Below, one piece after another: positions 4,066 to 41,018 of a stretch of 43,128 nucleotides of DNA; positions within the stretch are counted from its first letter, which is position 1, and the number at the start of each line of letters is the position of its first letter. This DNA comes from Clostridia bacterium (GTDB taxonomy: Bacteria > Bacillota > Clostridia > Christensenellales > UBA1242), in NCBI GenBank assembly GCA_900768425.1, contig CAAGCR010000013.1, positions 1 to 43,128 on the forward strand, given 5' to 3'. The position numbers and the translations under genes were made by a program. The notes under the pieces were generated by a model. It was not told where the DNA came from, made no database searches, and saw nothing but the letters and a program-made list of their open reading frames with translations.

Positions 4066-4329
4066 TTGAAACAAGAAATAAATCGTATGTGTTTCATATG
4101 TAGAAAGACACATAATAAACAAGATATGCTAAGAATTGTAAAAAATTCGGCAGGTGAGATATTTATTGATAAAACCGGCAAAGCAAACGGTCGTGGTGCA
4201 TATATTTGTAGAGATGCAAATTGTATAGAGCAAATTAAGAAACAAAAAATACTATCAAAAGCATTTAAGTGCGAAGTACCGCTAGATGTATATCAAAAAT
4301 TGTGCGAGGAATTAATTGATAAAAAATAA
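4066..4329 (+). CDS. ylxR: YlxR/RnpM family (DUF448) RNA-binding protein
   Basis: TTG start 7 nt after AAGGAG (4053-58). Contains RMCFICRK...GRGAYIC, typical of the family. Conserved position after nusA. Confidence 0.85.
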   Translation: MKQEINRMCFICRKTHNKQDMLRIVKNSAGEIFIDKTGKANGRGAYICRDANCIEQIKKQKILSKAFKCEVPLDVYQKLCEELIDKK

Positions 4330-4633
4330 TTTAGATAAAATTAAAGGTTATGTCGGAATTGCCAATAGAGCAAATTATATAATATTTGGTTCTGATAATC
4401 TAAAAGGTTATACACATAAATTATATATTGTGCTTTATAGGCAAGACTATGGCAAAACTATTCAAAAAACATTAAATGAATTAAGTGAAAGAAATATACC
4501 TTGTATTAAACTGGATATAAATGATTTTGATTATATAACAGGCTTAACAAATTGCAAACTGCTTGCAATAAAAAACAAAGGCATTTCAGATCAGGTACTA
4601 AAAATATTAAGGAGTGAAAATATTAGTGGCTAA
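4316..4633 (+). CDS. ylxQ: L7Ae-family ribosomal-protein-like protein YlxQ
   Basis: Small ORF between ylxR and infB. Contains GIANRANYIIFGSDN, an L7Ae-like pattern. The TTG start overlaps the ylxR stop and is uncertain. Confidence 0.7.
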   Translation: MIKNNLDKIKGYVGIANRANYIIFGSDNLKGYTHKLYIVLYRQDYGKTIQKTLNELSERNIPCIKLDINDFDYITGLTNCKLLAIKNKGISDQVLKILRSENISG

Positions 4634-7196
4634 CGAAAAAACAAATGGATTGAATAATTTAAAAACAATCAATCAAATTCAAAAAGAAGGCGTATTACAA
4701 GAACTATTGCGTGATTTACGCTCAACAAAAAGCCAATTAGAGATGTTAGTTAAAAACACATCTCGCTTTATTGCGGCAAAAAAAGAGAAAGAAAAAGAAA
4801 AGGAAATAGAAAAACCTGTTCAGAAAGAAGAAAAAAATGAAGCAATAGAGCATATCGCACCAAAGGCAGAAAAAGAACCTGTTATTGAAAAGGCTGAAGA
4901 AAAATCAGAAGTTAAACAACCTGTTCAATCGCGTGATAATAATAGACAAAATGGCTATAATCGCGATCAAAGACAAAATAATTATCAAAATAATTATTAT
5001 AACGATAGACGTCAGTTTAATAATAATCGTGATCAGCGTCAATTTGGCAATAATAATGGCTTTAATAGACAATACAACAATCAACGCCAATTTGGTAACT
5101 TTAATAATAACGAAAGACGTCCATATAATAACAATTTTAACGGCGAAAGACGTCCTTTTAATAACCAAAATGGTTTTGCACAAAGTAAAGCAAATACATT
5201 TAAAAGTTTTGTTCCACTAGAGAGTTCAAAGGTTTTAGCCGGTCCTGAAAAGACTTTTGCAGGCAAAAAAGCACCGGTTAAGTCTCAATATGATGAAAAG
5301 AAACAAATGAGTAAAAAATCTCTTATGAAAAGAGGTTTCATTATTGATGATTCATACAATGAAGATTTAGATGGCGTAAGAATGGGTTCAAGAAAACTCG
5401 TTAAATCTAAAAAGAAAGAAACACCTACTTTTGTTGCACCTGCCATTGAAAATGCAGTTATAACAACTGAAAGTGTAACAGTTAAAACATTGTCAGAAAA
5501 AACAGGGAAACCTGTAACTGAAATCATTAAAAAATTAATGATATTAGGTGTAATGGCAACAATTAATAGTTCGCTTGACTTTACGACTGCTGAACTTGTT
5601 GCAGAAGAATTGGGTGTAAAACTAGAACAAAAACTTGAAAAAACCTATGAAGAGCAATTAGAGGAACAATCAAAAGAAATTGGTGATCACGCAATTAAAC
5701 GCCCACCAGTTGTAACTGTTATGGGGCACGTTGACCATGGTAAAACATCACTCCTAGATGCAATAAGAAAAACCAATGTTGTTAGCGGTGAAGCCGGTGG
5801 TATTACACAAAAAATTGGTGCATATCAAGTATCGTGGAATGGAGAAAAAATCACATTCATTGATACACCAGGTCACGCAGCATTTACCGCAATGCGTGCA
5901 AGAGGTGCAAAGGTTACTGATATTGCTATTCTAGTAGTTGCTGCCGATGATGGTATTATGCCACAAACTATTGAAGCAATAAATCACATTAAAGCCGCCG
6001 CTTGTCCAATGATTGTTGCAATCAATAAAATGGATAAACCAGAAGCAAATCCAGAAAGAGTTAAACAACAGTTGGCAGAAAATGGTGTATTGCCAGAAGA
6101 ATGGGGTGGTGATACTATACTTGTTCCAATTTCAGCAAAGCAAGGTGTTGGCATTGATAAATTATTAGAAACTGTGCTTTTAGTTGCCGAAATGCAAGAA
6201 TTAAAGGCTGATCCAACACAAATGGCTGTTGGTGCTGTTATAGAAGCCGAACTAGACAAAAATCGTGGACCTATTGCAACGGTATTAATTCAAAATGGTA
6301 CATTGCACGTTGGCGATAGTGTTATGAGTGGTATCACTTATGGTAAGGTAAGAGCAATGTTTGATGAATATGGCAAACAATTAAAATCTGCTCCACCTAG
6401 CACTCCTGTTGCTATTCTAGGTTTAGATTCTGTTCCAAATGCAGGTGATCAAGTATATGCTATTGATGAAAAATTATCTAAACAAGTTATTCAAGAAAGA
6501 ATCAACAAGATAAAAGAAGAACGTGCTAACTCTACCTCGGGTGTGTCATTAGATGATTTTATGGATAGGGTAAACGAAGGTAAATTAAAGACATTAAACA
6601 TCATAATCAAAGCAGACGTTCAAGGCTCTGTTGAAGCATTAAAACAAACTCTAACATCAATTAAAAATGAAGAAGCAAAAGTTGTTTGTATCCATAGTGG
6701 TGCAGGTCCTGTTACAGAATCTGATGTTATATTGGCAGGTGCAAGTGATGCAGTTATAATCAACTTTAACCTAAAAATTGCTGGAAAGATTGAACAATTT
6801 GCTGAAAATCAAAAAGTACAAATCAAGTCTTATAAAGTAATATATGAATGTGTTGATGAAATAACAAAAGCATTAACAGGTATGCTTTCTGTTAAATATG
6901 AAGATAAAGTCATTGGTCATGCAGAAGTTAGAGCAATGTTTAAATTATCAAGTGCGGGTATTGTTTGTGGCTCTTATATTAAAGATGGTAAAGTAACTCG
7001 TAATTCATATGTTAATGTGTTTAGGGGTGATGAAAAAATATTACAAACACAAATAGAAGCATTAAAGATTCAAAAAGATGATAAAGCAGAAGTAAATTAT
7101 GGTTACGAATGCGGTATTAAACTAAAAGACAGCACTGGTGTTCAAGTAGGTGATATATTTGAAGTTTATGAAAAAGTTGAAATCAAAAGGGGATAA
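4626..7196 (+). CDS. infB: Translation initiation factor IF-2
   Basis: GTPase motifs are GHVDHGKTSLLD, DTPGH and NKMD. I prefer the GTG at 4626 because the in-frame GTG at 4614 overlaps the AAGGAG RBS (4609-14). The N-terminus carries an N/Q/R-rich low-complexity tract. Confidence 0.95.
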   Translation: MANEKTNGLNNLKTINQIQKEGVLQELLRDLRSTKSQLEMLVKNTSRFIAAKKEKEKEKEIEKPVQKEEKNEAIEHIAPKAEKEPVIEKAEEKSEVKQPVQSRDNNRQNGYNRDQRQNNYQNNYYNDRRQFNNNRDQRQFGNNNGFNRQYNNQRQFGNFNNNERRPYNNNFNGERRPFNNQNGFAQSKANTFKSFVPLESSKVLAGPEKTFAGKKAPVKSQYDEKKQMSKKSLMKRGFIIDDSYNEDLDGVRMGSRKLVKSKKKETPTFVAPAIENAVITTESVTVKTLSEKTGKPVTEIIKKLMILGVMATINSSLDFTTAELVAEELGVKLEQKLEKTYEEQLEEQSKEIGDHAIKRPPVVTVMGHVDHGKTSLLDAIRKTNVVSGEAGGITQKIGAYQVSWNGEKITFIDTPGHAAFTAMRARGAKVTDIAILVVAADDGIMPQTIEAINHIKAAACPMIVAINKMDKPEANPERVKQQLAENGVLPEEWGGDTILVPISAKQGVGIDKLLETVLLVAEMQELKADPTQMAVGAVIEAELDKNRGPIATVLIQNGTLHVGDSVMSGITYGKVRAMFDEYGKQLKSAPPSTPVAILGLDSVPNAGDQVYAIDEKLSKQVIQERINKIKEERANSTSGVSLDDFMDRVNEGKLKTLNIIIKADVQGSVEALKQTLTSIKNEEAKVVCIHSGAGPVTESDVILAGASDAVIINFNLKIAGKIEQFAENQKVQIKSYKVIYECVDEITKALTGMLSVKYEDKVIGHAEVRAMFKLSSAGIVCGSYIKDGKVTRNSYVNVFRGDEKILQTQIEALKIQKDDKAEVNYGYECGIKLKDSTGVQVGDIFEVYEKVEIKRG

Positions 7197-18950: not shown

Positions 18951-20372
18951 ATGAAAAACAAAAGTATAACAAGTAGAGATGTTGATTTTGCACAATGGTA
19001 TACAGATGTAGTAAAAGCGGCAAAATTGGCTGATTATAGCAGTGTAAAAGGTTGTGTTGTGTTTGAACCAAATGGTAATGCTCTTTGGGAAAAGATGAAA
19101 GAAGTTTTGGATAAAAAGTTTAAACAAACAGGGCACGAAAATGTATATATGCCAGTGTTAATTCCAGAATCTTTATTAAAAAAAGAAGGTGAGTTAATAG
19201 AAGGTTTTGCACCAGAGTGTGCTTGGGTTACACAAGGCGGTAGTTCGGAATTAGATGAGAAATTGGCATTTAGGCCAACATCTGAAACATTATTTTCAGA
19301 TTATTATTCAAAGAAAATAAAATCATATAGAGATTTACCTAAGTTGTATAATCAATGGGCAAATGTAATAAGGTGGGAAAAAGAAACTCGTCCATTTTTG
19401 CGTACACGTGAATTTTTATGGCAAGAAGGTCATACTGTTCACGAAACTGAGCAAGAGGCTGTTGAAGAAACAATCAGAATGCTAAATGTGTATAAAGATT
19501 TCTTTGTTGATTATTTGGCAATACCGGTAATCAGCGGTAAAAAAACAGAAAAAGAAAAATTTGCAGGTGCAGAAAGCACATATACTATTGAAGCCTTAAT
19601 GTATAACGGTATTGCGTTACAAAGTGCTACGAGTCATTATTTTGGTCAAAAATTTGCAAAAGCATATGATATTAAGTTTTTGAGTAGAGATGAAAAATGG
19701 GAATATGCTTATCAAACATCTTGGGGTTCAACAACAAGAATGATTGGTGCATTAATTATGGTTCATAGTGATGATAATGGTTTAGTTTTACCACCTAAAA
19801 TTGCACCAAAGCAAGTTGTTGTTATTCCAATAGGTAAAGAAGATGAAATAAATAAACTTGCTGACAAATATTCTGAGTTATTGAATAATAATGATATAGT
19901 CGCTTATGTTGACAAATCTGAAAAGTCACCAGGTTTCAAATTTGCAGAAGCAGAAGTTAATGGTATACCAGTAAGAGTAGAAGTTGGTATGAGAGATTTG
20001 ACTAATGGAATAATTACATTGGCAAGACGTGATACTGGTGAAAAAATACAAGTAGATAAAGACTGTGATATAGTTGCAGTTGTTAAAGAGTTAATGAATG
20101 ATATCCAAAATAATTTACTTGAAAGAGCAACAAAAAGAAGAAATGAATTAACTTTTGAATGTAAAACCTTAAATGAAGTAGTTGAGCAAATAAACAAACA
20201 ACCAGGTTTTATTAAAGCAGAATGGTGTGGCTGTTTAGATTGTGAACTAAAAATGAAGGAATACAGAGGAATAAAATCTAGATGCATTTTAGATGAAGAA
20301 GTTAAAAATGGAAAATGTGTTGTTTGTGGATGTCATTCAAAATTTAGTGTTATATGGGGTATTCAATATTAA
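18951..20372 (+). CDS. proS: Prolyl-tRNA synthetase, archaeal/eukaryote-like type (no editing insertion; C-terminal Zn-binding domain)
   Basis: GAGGAG RBS. Contains FAQWYTDVVKAAKLADYSSVKGC and FRPTSET. 473 aa ending in WGIQY with Cys pairs. Confidence 0.9.
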   Translation: MKNKSITSRDVDFAQWYTDVVKAAKLADYSSVKGCVVFEPNGNALWEKMKEVLDKKFKQTGHENVYMPVLIPESLLKKEGELIEGFAPECAWVTQGGSSELDEKLAFRPTSETLFSDYYSKKIKSYRDLPKLYNQWANVIRWEKETRPFLRTREFLWQEGHTVHETEQEAVEETIRMLNVYKDFFVDYLAIPVISGKKTEKEKFAGAESTYTIEALMYNGIALQSATSHYFGQKFAKAYDIKFLSRDEKWEYAYQTSWGSTTRMIGALIMVHSDDNGLVLPPKIAPKQVVVIPIGKEDEINKLADKYSELLNNNDIVAYVDKSEKSPGFKFAEAEVNGIPVRVEVGMRDLTNGIITLARRDTGEKIQVDKDCDIVAVVKELMNDIQNNLLERATKRRNELTFECKTLNEVVEQINKQPGFIKAEWCGCLDCELKMKEYRGIKSRCILDEEVKNGKCVVCGCHSKFSVIWGIQY

Positions 20373-20455
20373 CAACTAAATATGGTATATGTATTCATTA
20401 TATAAATACTATATACTGTGTATTATGTTAATAATTTTAAACAAAATAATTATTC

Positions 20456-20484
20456 TTGCATTTGTAAAATATTTATGCTATAAT
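20456..20484 (+). promoter_or_regulatory. Near-consensus sigmaA promoter driving the large ncRNA
   Basis: TTGCAT (20456-61), 17-nt spacer, then TGcTATAAT as an extended -10 (20476-84). The predicted transcription start is near 20491. Confidence 0.7.
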
Positions 20485-20490
20485 AATAAT

Positions 20491-21061
20491 GAAGGTGCAG
20501 TATCCTAGTCATCAAAGTTGTGCTGGAAGGTGATTTTTAAAGCACTGAAGGGCATATCTGTGAAGTTCTTTGTGTTTGCTTTGGTTGCCCAAACTGGGGC
20601 AGATGCTGAGAGTTAAGATTTTTGGGCGGGTTATAATGGCATATAGTCTTTACCCCATTAATCGTGGAGACCTATTTTGGCGAAAATATTAGTTTTTACT
20701 ATTTAGGCGTGAACCTGCATATGACAAACATTGTGTGCAGTGTAGCCTGCCTTGAGTGGATGTATGGGGATATAACGATTAAAACTTACTTTTGTTTTTA
20801 AGCGCTTAACAAAAGAGTAGTTGTGTTATTGAAACGGCATTTGCAAAAAAGGCTAAGGTATAATAATGGTGTTTGGGAAAACCTCTAGGCTGTTGATATA
20901 AAAGATTATGTCAGGCATATTAAGGATTATAGTGCGCTCTTAGTGGCGATTCGGTGAAAAGTCTATGGTTAAAAGGAAACTGCTTTTTGGTGACAAAAAG
21001 TCATATAGATGGGAAATCCAACCGAACCTATGTCGCAAGGTTTACTTAGTATACTACCTTC
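20491..21061 (+). ncRNA. ole: Large (~570 nt) structured ncRNA; candidate OLE-class RNA
   Basis: No + strand ORF of 60 aa or more between 20373 and 21163. G+C is much higher than the flanks: 29 of 60 in 20581-20640 against 9 of 60 in 20401-20460. A terminal helix joins the ends: 20491-96 with 21056-61, and 20499-503 with 21051-55. There are many internal helices, including a GNRA-capped hairpin at 20983-21000. The context (xseAB upstream, a 4-TM protein and argR-recN downstream) matches the published OLE/oapA locus. Confidence 0.65.
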
Positions 21062-21077
21062 TTTATATTAAAAATAA

Positions 21078-21103
21078 AAAAGTCATTTTTATAATGGCTT
21101 TTT
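21078..21103 (+). terminator. Weak hairpin after the ncRNA (probably leaky)
   Basis: AAAAGTCATT (21078-87) pairs with AATGGCTTTT (21093-102), including one G-U and only two G-C pairs. The T-run is short. Confidence 0.35.
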
Positions 21104-21217
21104 AATATATATAAGATATATAGATGTATGTAAAGATATAAAATTATTAGATAAGAATTTTTTTTGTACATAAAAGATAAAGTTGTAATTTGTAAAATAA
21201 AATTAAAAGGGATTATT

Positions 21218-21844
21218 ATGGAAGAAGAACCGAAGCGGTCAAACAAAAAAGTGAAAAAACAAAGCATAAATTTTTGGCCTTTAAAAATTTTGATTCTTGC
21301 TATAGCCTTGTCGTTAGGGTTTAGTTTGTTGTCGGAATATGTTATGGGGGCAACCGGTATAATTATTGCAGTTTTAGTAATTATACTTTTTGTTGCTTTA
21401 TCAATTATAACTGATATGATTGGTGTTGCTGCAACCGCTTGTTCAAAAGAACCTTTTATGGCAATGTGTTCAAAAAAGGTTAGGGGAGCAAAAGAAGGTT
21501 TAATGCTTATAAGAAATGCGGATAAAGTTGCTTCGCTATGCAATGATGTTATAGGTGATGTTTGTGGTATATTGAGTGGTGCTGCTGGTGCTAGTATTGT
21601 CGCAAGAATAACTGTTGATTTCCAAAATGCAAATTTATCAATTTTAGTTGCATCTTTAATTACTGCATTTATTGCTGGGGTTACAATTTTTGGTAAAGCA
21701 TTGGGTAAGCATACTGCCATGGATAATTGTAATTCTATAATTTTAAGAGTTGGGAAGATTTTAAGTTTATTTACTAAACAAAATAAAACTAAAAAGGTAA
21801 AAGACAAGAAAGATAAAAATTTAGATGAAAAACCAAATGAGTAG
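21218..21844 (+). CDS. oapA: 4-TM membrane protein with a Lys-rich tail; candidate OLE-associated protein OapA
   Basis: ATG at 21218 (MEEEPKRSNKK). I count four hydrophobic segments. The pattern DMIGVAATA...GAKEGL...VIGDVCGILSGAAG is faintly CNNM/CorB-like. The gene lies immediately downstream of the ncRNA. Confidence 0.55.
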   Translation: MEEEPKRSNKKVKKQSINFWPLKILILAIALSLGFSLLSEYVMGATGIIIAVLVIILFVALSIITDMIGVAATACSKEPFMAMCSKKVRGAKEGLMLIRNADKVASLCNDVIGDVCGILSGAAGASIVARITVDFQNANLSILVASLITAFIAGVTIFGKALGKHTAMDNCNSIILRVGKILSLFTKQNKTKKVKDKKDKNLDEKPNE

Positions 21845-21922
21845 AAAGTTGTTAAGAATTAAAAATATTTACCATATAAATTATATCGTTTGTGTTTTTT
21901 AAAATGAAATAGTTTATTGCGG

Positions 21923-21949
21923 GGTAGACTTTTGTCTACCTTGTTTTTT
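21923..21949 (+). terminator. Intrinsic terminator of the ncRNA-membrane protein unit
   Basis: GGTAGAC (21923-29), loop TTTT, GTCTACC (21934-40), then TTGTTTTTT. Confidence 0.8.
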
Positions 21950-22228
21950 ATTTTCGTTTATTGGTGGTTAGAGTAGAAGTGTTCCGTCTGTGTTAATATT
22001 TTTTATTAAGGTTTTCAGTGATAATCAAAGAGTAGTTCTTTAATATTGCTGTGTAAGAGATATATTAAACATTGAATAATGTTTAATTATTTTTAATGCA
22101 TATTTTGTTTTGTAAAATGTGTGATGATGTGTAGTCTAAAATAATACAAAATGGTTATGTATAATGCGATTATAAATATAAAATATGTTTTTATAAAAAT
22201 GCGTAAATGTAAATTTTAATAAAAATTG

Positions 22229-22246
22229 CTTGCATAAATATGCATA
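22229..22246. promoter_or_regulatory. ARG-box-like operator (best of several)
   Basis: TGCAT-AAAT-ATGCA at 22231-44: inverted 5-nt half-sites with a 4-nt A/T spacer, the same architecture as the TGAAT-N4-ATTCA ARG box. Weaker copies lie at 22254-67 and 22309-22. Confidence 0.45.
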
Positions 22247-22252
22247 AAACAC

Positions 22253-22281
22253 TTGCATAATTATAAATTGTATTGTATAAT
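22253..22281 (+). promoter_or_regulatory. SigmaA-type promoter of argR-recN
   Basis: TTGCAT (22253-58), 17-nt spacer, TATAAT (22276-81). Confidence 0.55.
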
Positions 22282-22379
22282 ATTCAAAAATGAATGAATA
22301 AACATAAATTTATAAATATGCATAAAGTGCTTCAATCCCTTTAAAATAAAGGCATTGAGAATGTTATAAGGAGGCAAAT

Positions 22380-22832
22380 TTGGCACGCTCATTAAGACAA
22401 TCTAAAATATTAGAAATCATATCTACCAAAGAAATTGAAACCCAAGATGATTTAGTTGCTCAGTTAAAAGCAGCCAATTTTGACATAACTCAAGCAACAA
22501 TTTCTCGTGACATTAAAGAGTTAGGGCTTATAAAAGTTTTGGGGAGCGAAGGTAGGTATAAGTATGCTCTTGTAGAATCTGGTGAGCAAGGTGTAAGCAA
22601 TAAAAATATAAACTTATTTAAAATGTGTGTTATATCAGTAAAAGCAATTCAAAATGTTTGCATTATCAGAACAGTTAAACAGTTTGCTATGGGTGTATGC
22701 TCTTTAATTGATAAATTAAATTTGATTGATGTTATGGGTTCTTCTTGTGGCGATGATTCTGTTTTGGTTTATTTTCCGGATAACACAAAAGCAATTAACG
22801 CAATGAATACTATAGTTGAAATATTAGGATAG
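22380..22832 (+). CDS. argR: Arginine repressor ArgR/AhrC
   Basis: TTG start 5 nt after AAGGAGG. Contains RQSKILEIISTKEIETQDDLVAQLKAANFDITQATISRDIKELGLIK and a C-terminal GDDSVLV motif. Confidence 0.9.
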   Translation: MARSLRQSKILEIISTKEIETQDDLVAQLKAANFDITQATISRDIKELGLIKVLGSEGRYKYALVESGEQGVSNKNINLFKMCVISVKAIQNVCIIRTVKQFAMGVCSLIDKLNLIDVMGSSCGDDSVLVYFPDNTKAINAMNTIVEILG

Positions 22833-25869: not shown

Positions 25870-26490
25870 ATGGTAAATTATAATAGTCAAGCAAAATGTG
25901 TGGCTATAAAATATGCAGTAATTGAGTTCTGGCGAAAAAATAAATTTTTGCTTATTTTGCTTGGTAGTTTAATTCTTATAGCATTGCTGACCGGTGTTTT
26001 TACATCTATAAAGTTATATAATTTAGATAACGATATAGATTTAACCGATTATAGTGTAAAGACAATGGTGGATGGCTCTATTTATTCGTTTAGTTACTTT
26101 TTGCTAAGGTTGTTGTCCTGTCTTATAATAATTGGATTGCTTTTGCTGTTTTCACTTAACAAATTTATGTATTTTCTTGGTGTGTCGCTTATAGTTTATC
26201 GCACATATTTGATAACATTAAATTGCACATTTATTATTATAAAGTATGGAGTGGGTGGGATTTTAAATGCAATTTTGATTATATTGCCTTGTCAGTTACT
26301 GTTTCTTTTTTTAATAACTATTCTTTTTGTGTTGTTTATAGATATGTTTAAACAAAAGAAAGAATGTGGTAGTGTGGATAGTGGTTATTATAAGTTAATT
26401 ATATATCTGTTGTTGTTATTACTTGTTATTGATTTGGTTGAAATAATATTATTGGTGGTTTTTAAACCAACAACAATATTAATTATTTGA
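25870..26490 (+). CDS. Polytopic membrane protein, possibly SpoIIM-like
   Basis: 206 aa with about 5 TM segments. The topology (short N-terminus, TM, loop, clustered TMs) and the neighbourhood near punA/dacF recall spoIIM. No RBS is visible and there is no diagnostic motif. Confidence 0.3.
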   Translation: MVNYNSQAKCVAIKYAVIEFWRKNKFLLILLGSLILIALLTGVFTSIKLYNLDNDIDLTDYSVKTMVDGSIYSFSYFLLRLLSCLIIIGLLLLFSLNKFMYFLGVSLIVYRTYLITLNCTFIIIKYGVGGILNAILIILPCQLLFLFLITILFVLFIDMFKQKKECGSVDSGYYKLIIYLLLLLLVIDLVEIILLVVFKPTTILII

Positions 26491-38826: not shown

Positions 38827-40284
38827 ATGACTTGGTTTGTTGATAAATTAAGCAATACATCTACTATAACACAAGTAATTGTTTCGGTATCGTTAATTAT
38901 GTCTGTTGGCTTTTTAATGACAAGATTGACAAAACTGGCAAAACTTCCAAATGTTACTGGTTATATTTTAGCGGGAATATTGATTGGACCATATTGTTTG
39001 AATTTGATACCGCAAAATATAATAAGTGGTATGGGCTTTATTTCCGATATTGCTTTGGCTTTTATTGCATTTAGTGTTGGAGAGTTTTTTAAGTTTGATA
39101 GTTTAAAGAAAAGTGGTCTTAAAATAATTGTATTAACAATTTTTGAAGCATTGATGGCTTCAATAGTAGTATTTATTGTTATGTACTTTGTTTTAGGTTT
39201 AAGTTTACCTTTTTCTATTGTACTTGCAGCCTTGGCTTCGGCAACAGCACCGGCATCAACAATTATGACAATTAGGCAAACAAAAGCAAAGGGAGATTTT
39301 GTTGACACACTTTTGCAAGTTGTTGCCTTAGATGATGTTGTAAGTTTAATTGCATATAGTGTTGCAATTTCCGTTGCTTTGGCTTCAGTAAGTGGTGCAG
39401 GTGGGTTTAGTTTTAATGTTGTTGTTTTACCTATACTAAAAAATCTTTTAATGTTAGTAATAGGTGCTGCAATGGGATACTTATTAAAACTATTAATGCA
39501 AGTAAAACATGGTTCTGATAACAGATTAATTATAGTTATAAGTGTTCTACTATTATTCTGTGGTATAAGTTCTTTATTTGATGTGTCACCACTTTTAGGA
39601 TGTATGATAATTGGCACAGTTTACATAAATCTAACTAAAGATGAAAAATTATTCTTGCAAGTAAACTATTTTAGCCCACCAATTTTGCTTATGTTTTTTG
39701 TAGTGTCCGGTTTAAGTTTTAACCTATCTGCGTTATTTTCCGGTGAGAGTATAATAGGTTCAATTCCACTTTGGGCAATAGGTGTTATATATTTCTTCGT
39801 CAGAATAATAGGCAAATATCTTGGTGCATACTTAGGTTGTTTAACTATAAAGAAACCCAGAGAAGTGCGTAATTATTTAGGATTAGCACTTATACCACAA
39901 GCTGGTGTTGCAATCGGTTTGGCTGCGCTTGGTGCTAGAACATTAGGCGGTGATGTAGGAAGTGCTTTACAGACTATTATCTTGGCATCTAGTGTGTTAT
40001 ATGAACTTGTTGGCCCTGTTTGTGCTAAACTATCTTTGTATTTGTCAAAGTCATATTCAACAAAAATTGAAGATGTTGTGCCTGTGGAAGAAGTGACTCC
40101 ACAAGGTCAAAAGAAATCTCAAGTAGATTTATTGATAGAACGCATACATGAGATAGAGCGACAAAATGCAACAGAGCCGACTGTATCTCAAGAAGAACAA
40201 GCCTTTACTGAGGCTAGTGAAGAAGCCTTAGAGGCATTATATAACGATATACGCAAACAGCGTAATCGCAGAGGAAGATTTTAA
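38827..40284 (+). CDS. Cation:proton antiporter (Na+/H+ exchanger family, CPA2-like) with a charged C-terminal tail
   Basis: AAGGAGG RBS. Contains KLPNVTGYILAGILIGP. About 12 TM segments by eye. Confidence 0.8.
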   Translation: MTWFVDKLSNTSTITQVIVSVSLIMSVGFLMTRLTKLAKLPNVTGYILAGILIGPYCLNLIPQNIISGMGFISDIALAFIAFSVGEFFKFDSLKKSGLKIIVLTIFEALMASIVVFIVMYFVLGLSLPFSIVLAALASATAPASTIMTIRQTKAKGDFVDTLLQVVALDDVVSLIAYSVAISVALASVSGAGGFSFNVVVLPILKNLLMLVIGAAMGYLLKLLMQVKHGSDNRLIIVISVLLLFCGISSLFDVSPLLGCMIIGTVYINLTKDEKLFLQVNYFSPPILLMFFVVSGLSFNLSALFSGESIIGSIPLWAIGVIYFFVRIIGKYLGAYLGCLTIKKPREVRNYLGLALIPQAGVAIGLAALGARTLGGDVGSALQTIILASSVLYELVGPVCAKLSLYLSKSYSTKIEDVVPVEEVTPQGQKKSQVDLLIERIHEIERQNATEPTVSQEEQAFTEASEEALEALYNDIRKQRNRRGRF

Positions 40285-40301
40285 TAAAGGAGTAATAAAA
40301 A

Positions 40302-41018
40302 ATGATAGATCCAATAGCAAAATTATTAGGTAGTTGGTCTGCATCAATTACAATAGGAGCAATATGTTTAAGGTTAGGATTAACCTTGGTTTTCTCAGCA
40401 ATACTAGGCTGTGAAAGAGCGAGCAAAAGACACTCTGCTGGTCTTAGAACATTTATGGTGGTGGCACTTGCATCAACTCTTGCAGGAATGATTGATATGT
40501 TTTTGATTGAATCATATGCTTTAACTGTATCTCTAATTTCAGTCGGTGTGGTTATAGCCGTTGCTTCGCTTAGTAACAATTCAGTTTTATTTTCATCAAA
40601 AAATCAAATTAAAGGTCTAACAACATCTGTTAGTTTATGGGCTTGTGGAATAATTGGCTTATGCTTTGGCGTAGGTTTTTACACAATCGGTTTAATTGGT
40701 TTTATTGTTCTTCTTTGCAGTTTGTCATTGTTCCCAAGAATTGAACTATATTTGAAAAATCGTTCTAACCATTTTGAAATTCACTTGGAATTAGATAATA
40801 AAAATAATTTACCAAGATTTATGAATACAATAAGAGAATTAGGACTTAGAATTGATGATATAGAATTAAATTCCGCATATCTTAATTCAGGATTAAGTGT
40901 GTATACAGTATCGTTGACAGTTGTTAGTCCGGAATTAAAGAAATACAAAACACACACAGAAATTATTGCAGCAATTAATTCTTTGGAATATGTTAGTCAT
41001 ATAGAAGAAATGAGATAA
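40302..41018 (+). CDS. mgtC: MgtC/SapB family membrane protein
   Basis: Contains GCERASKRHSAGLRTFMVVALAS. N-terminal TM domain plus a soluble C-terminal domain. Confidence 0.85.
   Translation: MIDPIAKLLGSWSASITIGAICLRLGLTLVFSAILGCERASKRHSAGLRTFMVVALASTLAGMIDMFLIESYALTVSLISVGVVIAVASLSNNSVLFSSKNQIKGLTTSVSLWACGIIGLCFGVGFYTIGLIGFIVLLCSLSLFPRIELYLKNRSNHFEIHLELDNKNNLPRFMNTIRELGLRIDDIELNSAYLNSGLSVYTVSLTVVSPELKKYKTHTEIIAAINSLEYVSHIEEMR

Follow-up and report, generated by a model that had tools for sequence, protein, structure and literature searches.

OLE RNAs (ornate, large, extremophilic) are membrane-associated bacterial noncoding RNAs that have been known since 2006 and of which some 2,800 members are catalogued (PMC11332333). 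A stable and abundant transcript, membrane localisation and stress phenotypes are known only for the RNA of Halalkalibacterium (Bacillus) halodurans (PMC3413148, PMC12265935). In ordinary OLE RNAs the 5' strand of helix P12.2 is followed by P13, a GNRA-capped hairpin bulged at a single nucleotide, which forms the high-affinity primary site for the protein OapB (PMC7936274). A kissing loop between the P9 arms of OLE molecules has been seen by cryo-EM (PMC12286853), and the A-rich P4 loop is a published dimer contact. A published 'variant 1' OLE occurs mostly in the TANB77 gut clade, often misses the OapB site, has shortened P7, P8 and P9, and belongs to clades that mostly do without OapB and OapC (PMC11332333).

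The window, that is, the whole stretch of DNA analysed here (43,128 nucleotides from a Clostridia bacterium), has a gap of about 0.85 kb between proS, whose stop lies at 20372, and the next gene. A gathering-threshold Rfam scan of the whole window matched the OLE family, RF01071, to 20476-21076 on the forward strand, untruncated and covering model positions 1-616 of 616; it scored 346.7 bits, where the gathering score is 50 (E 2.2e-98). The suggestion of a candidate OLE-class large ncRNA, made earlier by a sequence-only reading of this DNA, is thus borne out end to end. OLE alone matched: ROOL, GOLLD, HEARO and raiA, which had been proposed as controls, gave no gathering-threshold match anywhere in the window, and a permissive scan of 20300-22450 returned no Rfam family besides OLE, these four included, at E <= 1. 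Identity extends to 203 of the 249 well-conserved RF01071 consensus positions (81.5%). The model has 159 consensus base pairs, 147 of which are present here, 134 of these in canonical form; exactly one consensus helix, of 8 pairs, is absent. Based on 15 anchor motifs, whose spacing was compared strictly among 28 retained loci, none of the conserved OLE sequence blocks is missing, and they follow one another in the usual order and at the usual spacing, P13 excepted. The fallback offered by the sequence-only reading, that a new class of large structured RNA has taken the genomic place of OLE, had as its sole basis that membership had been left unconfirmed from primary sequence, and we found no support for it; it is refuted by the match to RF01071 over its full length (E 2e-98), the order and spacing of the conserved blocks also speak against it, and it retains next to no probability. 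We conclude that the following element is a genuine OLE RNA, of a length that agrees with the roughly 600 nt and many near-invariant nucleotides of the class; as a member of an established class it is no new finding.

20491..21061, forward strand: OLE RNA, 571 nt from the P1 5' strand to the P1 3' strand, matching RF01071

The explanation that best covers the locus as a whole joins OLE identity, transcription of its own, the canonical fold, a mode of working inferred by homology and the traits of a P13-less lineage, and we give it a probability of about 0.95.

Compared with the model OLE RNA of H. halodurans (Rfam RF01071), the window RNA shares the family, the conserved blocks and closure by P1; both have a proximal promoter that ends just before P1, oapA immediately downstream, a GNRA-capped P14.1 and a P12.2 helix. 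H. halodurans OLE has P13, with a bulged U and a GUGA hairpin as the high-affinity OapB site, whereas the window RNA does not; in the latter the P4 loop is non-canonical, the P9 loop reads GCGC rather than GGCC, and P1 comprises 6 bp. The window host is a low-G+C gut anaerobe and not an alkaliphile, and the neighbouring genes are proS and argR instead of ispA and dxs. The OLE RNAs of Clostridium acetobutylicum and C. botulinum, solved as homodimers by cryo-EM in 2025, are likewise clostridial, measure about 575 nt and have a domain 1 (P3-P9) of comparable size. Their palindromic P9 loop occupies the same position (nt 315-318, against nt 312-315 in the window RNA), but its core is GGCC, whereas that of the window RNA is GCGC within an 8-nt palindrome, and their A-rich L4 loop, which forms an A-A bridge, is not conserved here. 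Knowledge of the OLE class is left unchanged by the present findings, to which the P13-less features are a small addition.

The earlier claims about the composition of the gap were largely accurate. It was said to hold no forward-strand ORF of 60 aa or more, and the longest is 46 aa; the G+C counts of 29 of 60 (20581-20640) and 9 of 60 (20401-20460) are exact. Calling it the most G+C-rich stretch in the window was an overstatement: the 571-nt RNA span, at 38.5% G+C versus 30.1% in the window, ranks in the top 1% of equal-sized segments, yet the highest value, 40.3%, is reached at 5682. Conservation of the span might be owed to a small protein-coding ORF, and forward-strand ORFs of 20-46 aa do occur in it, but none reaches 60 aa and the variation among relatives is compensatory in helices, not codon-patterned, which makes a coding explanation hardly credible.

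The genes around the RNA run spoIIIAA-AH, asp23, nusB, xseA, xseB, proS, OLE, a 208-aa ORF, argR, recN, spoIVB. The OLE context given in the sequence-only reading is recovered for xseA, xseB, OLE, oapA, argR and recN; the locus departs from it in that proS stands where ispA is usually found and dxs is missing, and a search across all 43 kb of the window located neither ispA nor dxs. We regard proS as a lineage-specific insertion, because xseB directly abuts OLE in related loci. The first ORF downstream of the RNA is:

21218..21844, forward strand: oapA, 208 aa with four hydrophobic segments

Its product is homologous to the protein encoded by the first downstream ORF in 82 of the 101 OLE loci among those listed (phmmer, E 1e-28 to 1e-47), and it keeps every residue that is invariant across 83 homologues, namely D66, G69, D110, G113, D114, G121, K160 and K164. 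A length of about 200 aa, the four hydrophobic segments and charged and glycine motifs are those of the OapA family. No curated family in Pfam or NCBIfam, neither of which has a model for OapA, matched at default thresholds; Pfam at E <= 1 gave a sub-threshold CNNM/DUF21 match (PF01595, E 0.0012), which is in line with the published relation of OapA to MpfA (PMC11332333). Neither this protein nor the 105-aa ORF that occupies the ylxQ position gave a meaningful match in sequence searches of the PDB, and the 535-nt oapA-argR gap had no Rfam match in the permissive scan (E <= 1). From homology and residue conservation, we assign the 208-aa ORF as OapA, the partner protein of OLE. The 0.85-kb intergenic region, empty in the annotation, is thereby explained, and an unnamed membrane protein can be given the name OapA. 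The window also carries the sporulation genes spoIIIAA-AH, spoIVB and sigF-spoIIAB-spoIIAA, as expected of a Bacillota host that is an anaerobe or spore-former.

For comparison of the fold we used at least 120 loci from species-representative genomes, found through the invariant core motif GCAGNGTAGCCTNCCTNGAG, and the closing helices were tested on 101 independent loci among those listed in which the conserved blocks at both ends of the RNA could be placed. The elements concerned are:

20491..20496, forward strand: P1 5' strand GAAGGU, pairing with 21056-21061
20494..20511, forward strand: conserved 5' block GGUGCAGUAUCCUAGUCA, whose AGUAU is invariant in the 101 loci among those listed
20914..20924, forward strand: P10 5' strand, pairing with 21045-21055
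21056..21061, forward strand: P1 3' strand ACCUUC, pairing with 20491-20496

P1, a helix that the literature names (PMC12265935, PMC3413148) and the Rfam structure line omits, corresponds to the GAAGGU/ACCUUC pairing (20491-96 with 21056-61) that the sequence-only reading had proposed to close the molecule. Its six pairs are 94-99% paired in the 101 loci among those listed, and it covaries: at five of the six pairs both sides have changed in 6-35 sequences, and the remaining pair is an invariant G-C. A second pairing had been placed beside it, AGUAU 20499-503 with AUACU 21051-55. Taken together the two helices reach a covariation score of 0.457, as against 0.236 in shuffled alignments (none of 500 as high) and at most 0.19 in slid ones. 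Covariation stands behind P1 and not behind AGUAU/AUACU, which we rejected: its 5' side is invariant, no pair in it changes on both sides, and its 3' side belongs to P10, the strongly covarying helix with which it would compete. Over 10 pairs, P10 shows 93% pairing in 99 loci among those listed, with 407 cells changed on both sides, while slid controls give 38-42%. The molecule adopts the canonical two-domain OLE fold, closed as a whole by P1 and in its 3' domain by P10, as both the covariance-model match and the covariation show.

Within these closing helices the RNA contains the following hairpins and strands, for which the names P4-P9 were put on the Rfam helices by inference from paper text and the names P12.2, P13, P14 and P14.1 follow the description in PMC7936274:

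20529..20546, forward strand: P4 hairpin, with the non-canonical loop AUUUUUAAAG at 20533-42
20566..20612, forward strand: P5/P5.1 hairpin, 20 of 20 pairs canonical, conserved apical loop GCCCA at 20587-91
20617..20663, forward strand: P6/P6.1 hairpin, RF01071 consensus helices
20671..20707, forward strand: P7 hairpin, shorter than the median
20715..20740, forward strand: P8 hairpin, the 10-bp hairpin of the sequence-only reading, 97.7% paired in the alignment of P13-less relatives
20749..20853, forward strand: P9 long arm, among the longest of the 28 loci compared
20800..20807, forward strand: P9 apical-loop palindrome AAGCGCUU, core GCGC at 20802-05, candidate intermolecular kissing loop
20950..20955, forward strand: P12.2 5' strand UUCGGU, pairing with ACCGAA 21021-26
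20956..20960, forward strand: 5-nt linker GAAAA that replaces the P13 hairpin, model 481-501 being deleted
20961..21010, forward strand: P14 and P14.1, with P14 (20961-68/21002-10) enclosing the UUAAAAGGAAAC internal loop and P14.1
20982-89/20994-21001, forward strand: P14.1, with a GUGA tetraloop at 20990-93

All eight helices that had been picked out by hand are complementary where they were placed, seven of them in perfect Watson-Crick pairing and the 10-bp hairpin with three G-U pairs. Judged against the consensus and its conservation, five are real: besides P1, these are the 10-bp hairpin 20715-24/20731-40, which is P8 of the OLE consensus, CUUUUG 20789-94/CAAAAG 20810-15, which is distal P9, UUCGGU 20950-55/ACCGAA 21021-26, which is P12.2, and the GNRA-capped hairpin with its GUGA loop, which is P14.1. 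The remaining three arise by coincidence and conflict with consensus helices that covary. One is the AGUAU/AUACU pairing. GCCCAAA 20587-93/UUUGGGC 20621-27 draws on the conserved GCCCA apical loop of P5, and we rejected it, since complementarity in other loci is confined to the invariant GCCC/GGGC portion, with the AAA/UUU extension pairing in just 29-62% of them. AGGC 20705-08/GCCU 20745-48 uses the P7 3' strand and part of an invariant junction motif and was likewise set aside. The 'stem' TTAAGCGCTTAA said to lie inside distal P9 is the palindromic apical loop of that arm.

The one missing consensus helix is P13, so that the window RNA departs from the canonical subtype: the anchors that flank P13 are 33 nt apart, whereas 91 of the 92 other loci among those listed have a spacing of 49-53 nt. 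A metagenome scan for this architecture yielded 33 gut and rumen loci, 29 of them with oapA downstream; all 18 that were tested are full-length Rfam OLE matches (329-408 bits). With the window structure projected onto a MAFFT alignment of 22 P13-less RNAs, 84.4% of cells were paired, compared with 73.4% after shuffling and 41-45% after sliding, and 81 of the 153 pairs had changed on both sides; the observed values were reached in 0 of 500 shuffles. Using polymorphism among seven strains as a readout for constraint, we counted 0.53 variable columns per 100 nt in OLE, 1.4-7.8 in the flanking genes and at least 3.2 in the flanking spacers. Within the region, OLE thus shows the lowest polymorphism among these strains and is under purifying selection. 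An identical OapA protein is encoded on at least 22 contigs from gut metagenomes. That P13 and the canonical P4 loop have gone might suggest a decaying, non-functional OLE relic, and defective ole genes have been noted in rare genomes without OapA (PMC11332333); here, however, oapA is intact with all its invariant residues, the RNA is more conserved among the seven strains than anything else in the locus, and the same architecture recurs with compensatory changes in relatives that are only 67-72% identical to the window RNA. A frameshift of oapA in most strains and neutral-rate divergence of the RNA among strains were both looked for and neither was seen. We consider decay very improbable and retain the reading of a functional OLE RNA from a P13-less lineage.

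The loops through which OLE molecules are known to meet have changed in different ways. The P4 loop CUAAAAA, which provides the A-A dimer bridge, is found in 97 of 99 ordinary OLE loci and in none of the P13-less group, and the window RNA, with AUUUUUAAAG in its place, deviates from the canonical subtype in this respect too. The P9 loop core is GGCC in about 85 of 100 other loci among those listed and GCGC in the window RNA. Within the P13-less group the P9 loops vary and all are self-complementary (GGCC, UCGCGA, UGACGUCA, GUCGAC and, in the window, AAGCGCUU), and across nearly all loci the loop is palindromic despite its sequence changes, with GGCC, GCGC, CGCG or ACGU cores. Self-complementarity that persists through sequence change supports the intermolecular kissing loop seen by cryo-EM (PMC12286853), to which the GCGC, CGCG and ACGU cores are added as evidence. 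The P14.1 tetraloop is GUGA in 17 of 29 P13-less RNAs, compared with 9 of 92 ordinary OLE RNAs.

The P13-less group is probably the published variant 1 of Fernando and Breaker (2024). Like the window RNA, variant 1 comes from uncultured gut Clostridia and misses the P13 nucleotides that bind OapB; P7 and P8 are shortened in variant 1, as they are in the window RNA, where both fall below the median length in the anchor spacing comparison of 28 loci. P9, by contrast, is shortened in variant 1 but is among the longest in the window RNA (28 loci). For OLE biology the gain is modest and consists in a gut-commensal representative of the P13-less form.

Because P13 is deleted, the particle is expected to work without OapB at that site, and independence from OapB at the primary site would follow from the deletion in the sequence. 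With the P4 loop not conserved and P13 absent, the contacts within the particle may therefore differ from those in model organisms. We tentatively suggest, at somewhat less than even odds, that the window RNA and some 20 or more diverged gut and rumen relatives form a naturally pared-down OLE particle, which would have no OapB at P13 and no canonical A-A bridge through P4 and would depend on OapA together with a P9 kissing loop that is re-coded and, in the window RNA, lengthened; P14.1 might take over the tetraloop contact with P12.2 in such a particle. If this were true, the group would mark the published contacts that are dispensable and would offer a simpler domain 2 for structural work.

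For the working of the RNA, we infer the transcript ends, dimerisation, membrane anchoring and stress role from other species. By homology with the H. halodurans and Clostridium OLE RNAs, the molecule would form a homodimer via loop-loop contacts that include the self-complementary P9 loop AAGCGCUU, and dimers of the four-helix membrane protein OapA, whose gene lies immediately downstream, would hold it at the cell membrane. The resulting ribonucleoprotein, again by homology, may help the cell to cope with short-chain alcohols, cold, excess Mg2+ and poor carbon sources (PMC3413148, PMC12265935). The host belongs to the uncultured spore-forming gut Clostridia, in which the particle is expected to function with no OapB bound at P13.

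For transcription of the RNA the locus carries the following putative signals:

20456..20461, forward strand: -35-like hexamer TTGCAT, a 3/6 match to TTGACA, 17 nt upstream of the -10
20476..20484, forward strand: extended -10 TGcTATAAT, with a transcription start predicted at about 20490-20492
21079..21103, forward strand: terminator-like A-tract, hairpin and U-run, -9.8 kcal/mol and z -4.2 by folding

The site described in the sequence-only reading as an 'almost perfect extended sigmaA promoter' (20456-84) is there, and its extended -10 is perfect, ending 6 nt before the first paired base of P1; 'almost perfect' does not hold for the -35, which matches at three of six positions, and our promoter scan skipped the site for that reason. 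No site within 20456-20484 varies among the seven strains. At 54 of 97 OLE loci there is a sigma-A-type promoter with the end of its -10 located 8-20 nt ahead of the GGYGCAGUAU block, in most cases with the TG extension, while a control region 200 nt upstream contained none at the same 97 loci. As a sequence element the proximal promoter is thus present and positionally conserved, and its activity is predicted. This count agrees with the H. halodurans experiments, in which the proximal promoter is active and raises expression more than 100-fold and the 5' ends map to the start of P1 (PMC3413148); across species, it shows that ole genes commonly have an extended -10 promoter directly next to P1. 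Most likely the RNA would be transcribed from its own sigma-A extended -10 promoter, with a start at or next to the first P1 nucleotide, and termination at the weak hairpin and U-run 21079-21103 would be leaky.

The terminator-like hairpin has only two G-C pairs, and our scan of 20300-21300, which demands three, reported no site for that reason. This weakness, together with the lack of a strong separate promoter for oapA, for which the candidates found score 9-10 of 12, might suggest that the RNA serves chiefly as a long, structured 5' leader for the cis regulation of oapA, and rescue constructs in H. halodurans do drive ole-oap from one promoter (PMC3413148). Against a cis-acting leader, the OLE RNA of H. 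halodurans builds up to one separate band that is abundant and very stable (PMC3413148), some P13-less loci have oapA over 2 kb downstream, and the RNA is conserved in the manner of one that acts in trans and binds proteins. In L099, the closest of the loci listed (about 71% identical, from an uncultured Clostridia MAG with different synteny), a DUF5662 gene sits between OLE and oapA. A leader function is improbable as the main role, if a shade less so than decay, and we favour an independently transcribed OLE RNA, with oapA probably expressed at least in part by readthrough from the ole promoter, given the weak terminator and the absence of a strong oapA promoter. At the same place after P1, L099 has a clearer hairpin followed by a T-run.

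In the window, an archaeal-like proS is inserted between xseB and the gene for the large noncoding RNA OLE; in the related OLE loci that share loss of the P13 hairpin (P13-less loci), OLE is directly preceded by xseB, with no proS between the two. A single strain (L122) carries a 34-nt insertion immediately 3' of the proS stop codon.

18951-20372 (+), proS, type I, archaeal-like (TIGR00408, 557.7 bits)

On the other side of OLE, the membrane-protein gene oapA lies approximately 2.3 kb downstream and is thus non-adjacent in the P13-less metagenome loci L128, L152, L153 and L140, and a DUF5662 gene separates OLE from oapA in L099, the closest OLE locus among the genome loci fetched. We therefore conclude that ole-oapA adjacency is loosened in parts of the P13-less group. 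Two features of the window lie at or just beyond the 3' end of OLE:

21068-21095 (+), promoter-like site TTAAAA-16-TATAAT, 10/12 matches
21046-21807 (-), 253-aa ORF with a TTG start, antisense to oapA and the OLE 3' end

The promoter-like site sits inside the terminator-like hairpin 3' of OLE and could permit some separate transcription of oapA. In L130, L131 and L136, the 3' strand of P1, the helix closing OLE, reads GCCUUC and immediately precedes a stretch of 7-9 T, and a separate hairpin is lacking, raising the question of how those OLE transcripts terminate. The antisense ORF is most likely a shadow of the oapA frame and no gene.

Within the 3' domain of OLE, the tetraloop of the GNRA-capped hairpin P14.1 (window 20990-20993) is GUGA in 17 of 29 P13-less RNAs versus 9 of 92 ordinary OLE RNAs, in samples that are phylogenetically non-independent; GCGA dominates at P14.1 in the ordinary RNAs. 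GUGA, the commonest P14.1 tetraloop in P13-less RNAs, also forms the loop of P13 in H. halodurans OLE.

Beyond oapA lies a long spacer:

21845-22379, oapA-argR spacer, 535 nt

It contains no ORF of at least 60 aa on either strand and has no match in Rfam. Variation among strains is fairly high, at 4.5 variable columns per 100 nt, and the spacer's counterpart in related loci is about 230 nt shorter. The spacer may contain what is left of genes often found at this position, for example dxs, nadK or tlyA, or it may simply be the argR control region.

Further features lie outside this core:

38827-41018 (+), Na+/H+ exchanger gene and MgtC-family gene
4066-4329, ylxR (Pfam YlxR)
4316-4633 (+), 105-aa ORF between ylxR and infB
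25870-26490 (+), 206-aa ORF directly 3' of spoIVB

The exchanger and MgtC-family genes are of passing interest because the OLE particle is linked to Mg2+ homeostasis; situated ~18 kb downstream of ole, they are too distant for a linkage argument. In Bacillus, the ylxR-infB position is occupied by ylxQ, whose product is an L7Ae-type kink-turn-binding paralogue of OapC/YbxF. A Pfam search with the 105-aa ORF (E <= 1) revealed no L7Ae signature, and the PDB gave no match. The 206-aa ORF has no Pfam match, and a 35% identical counterpart occupies the equivalent position in L149, another of the compared OLE loci.
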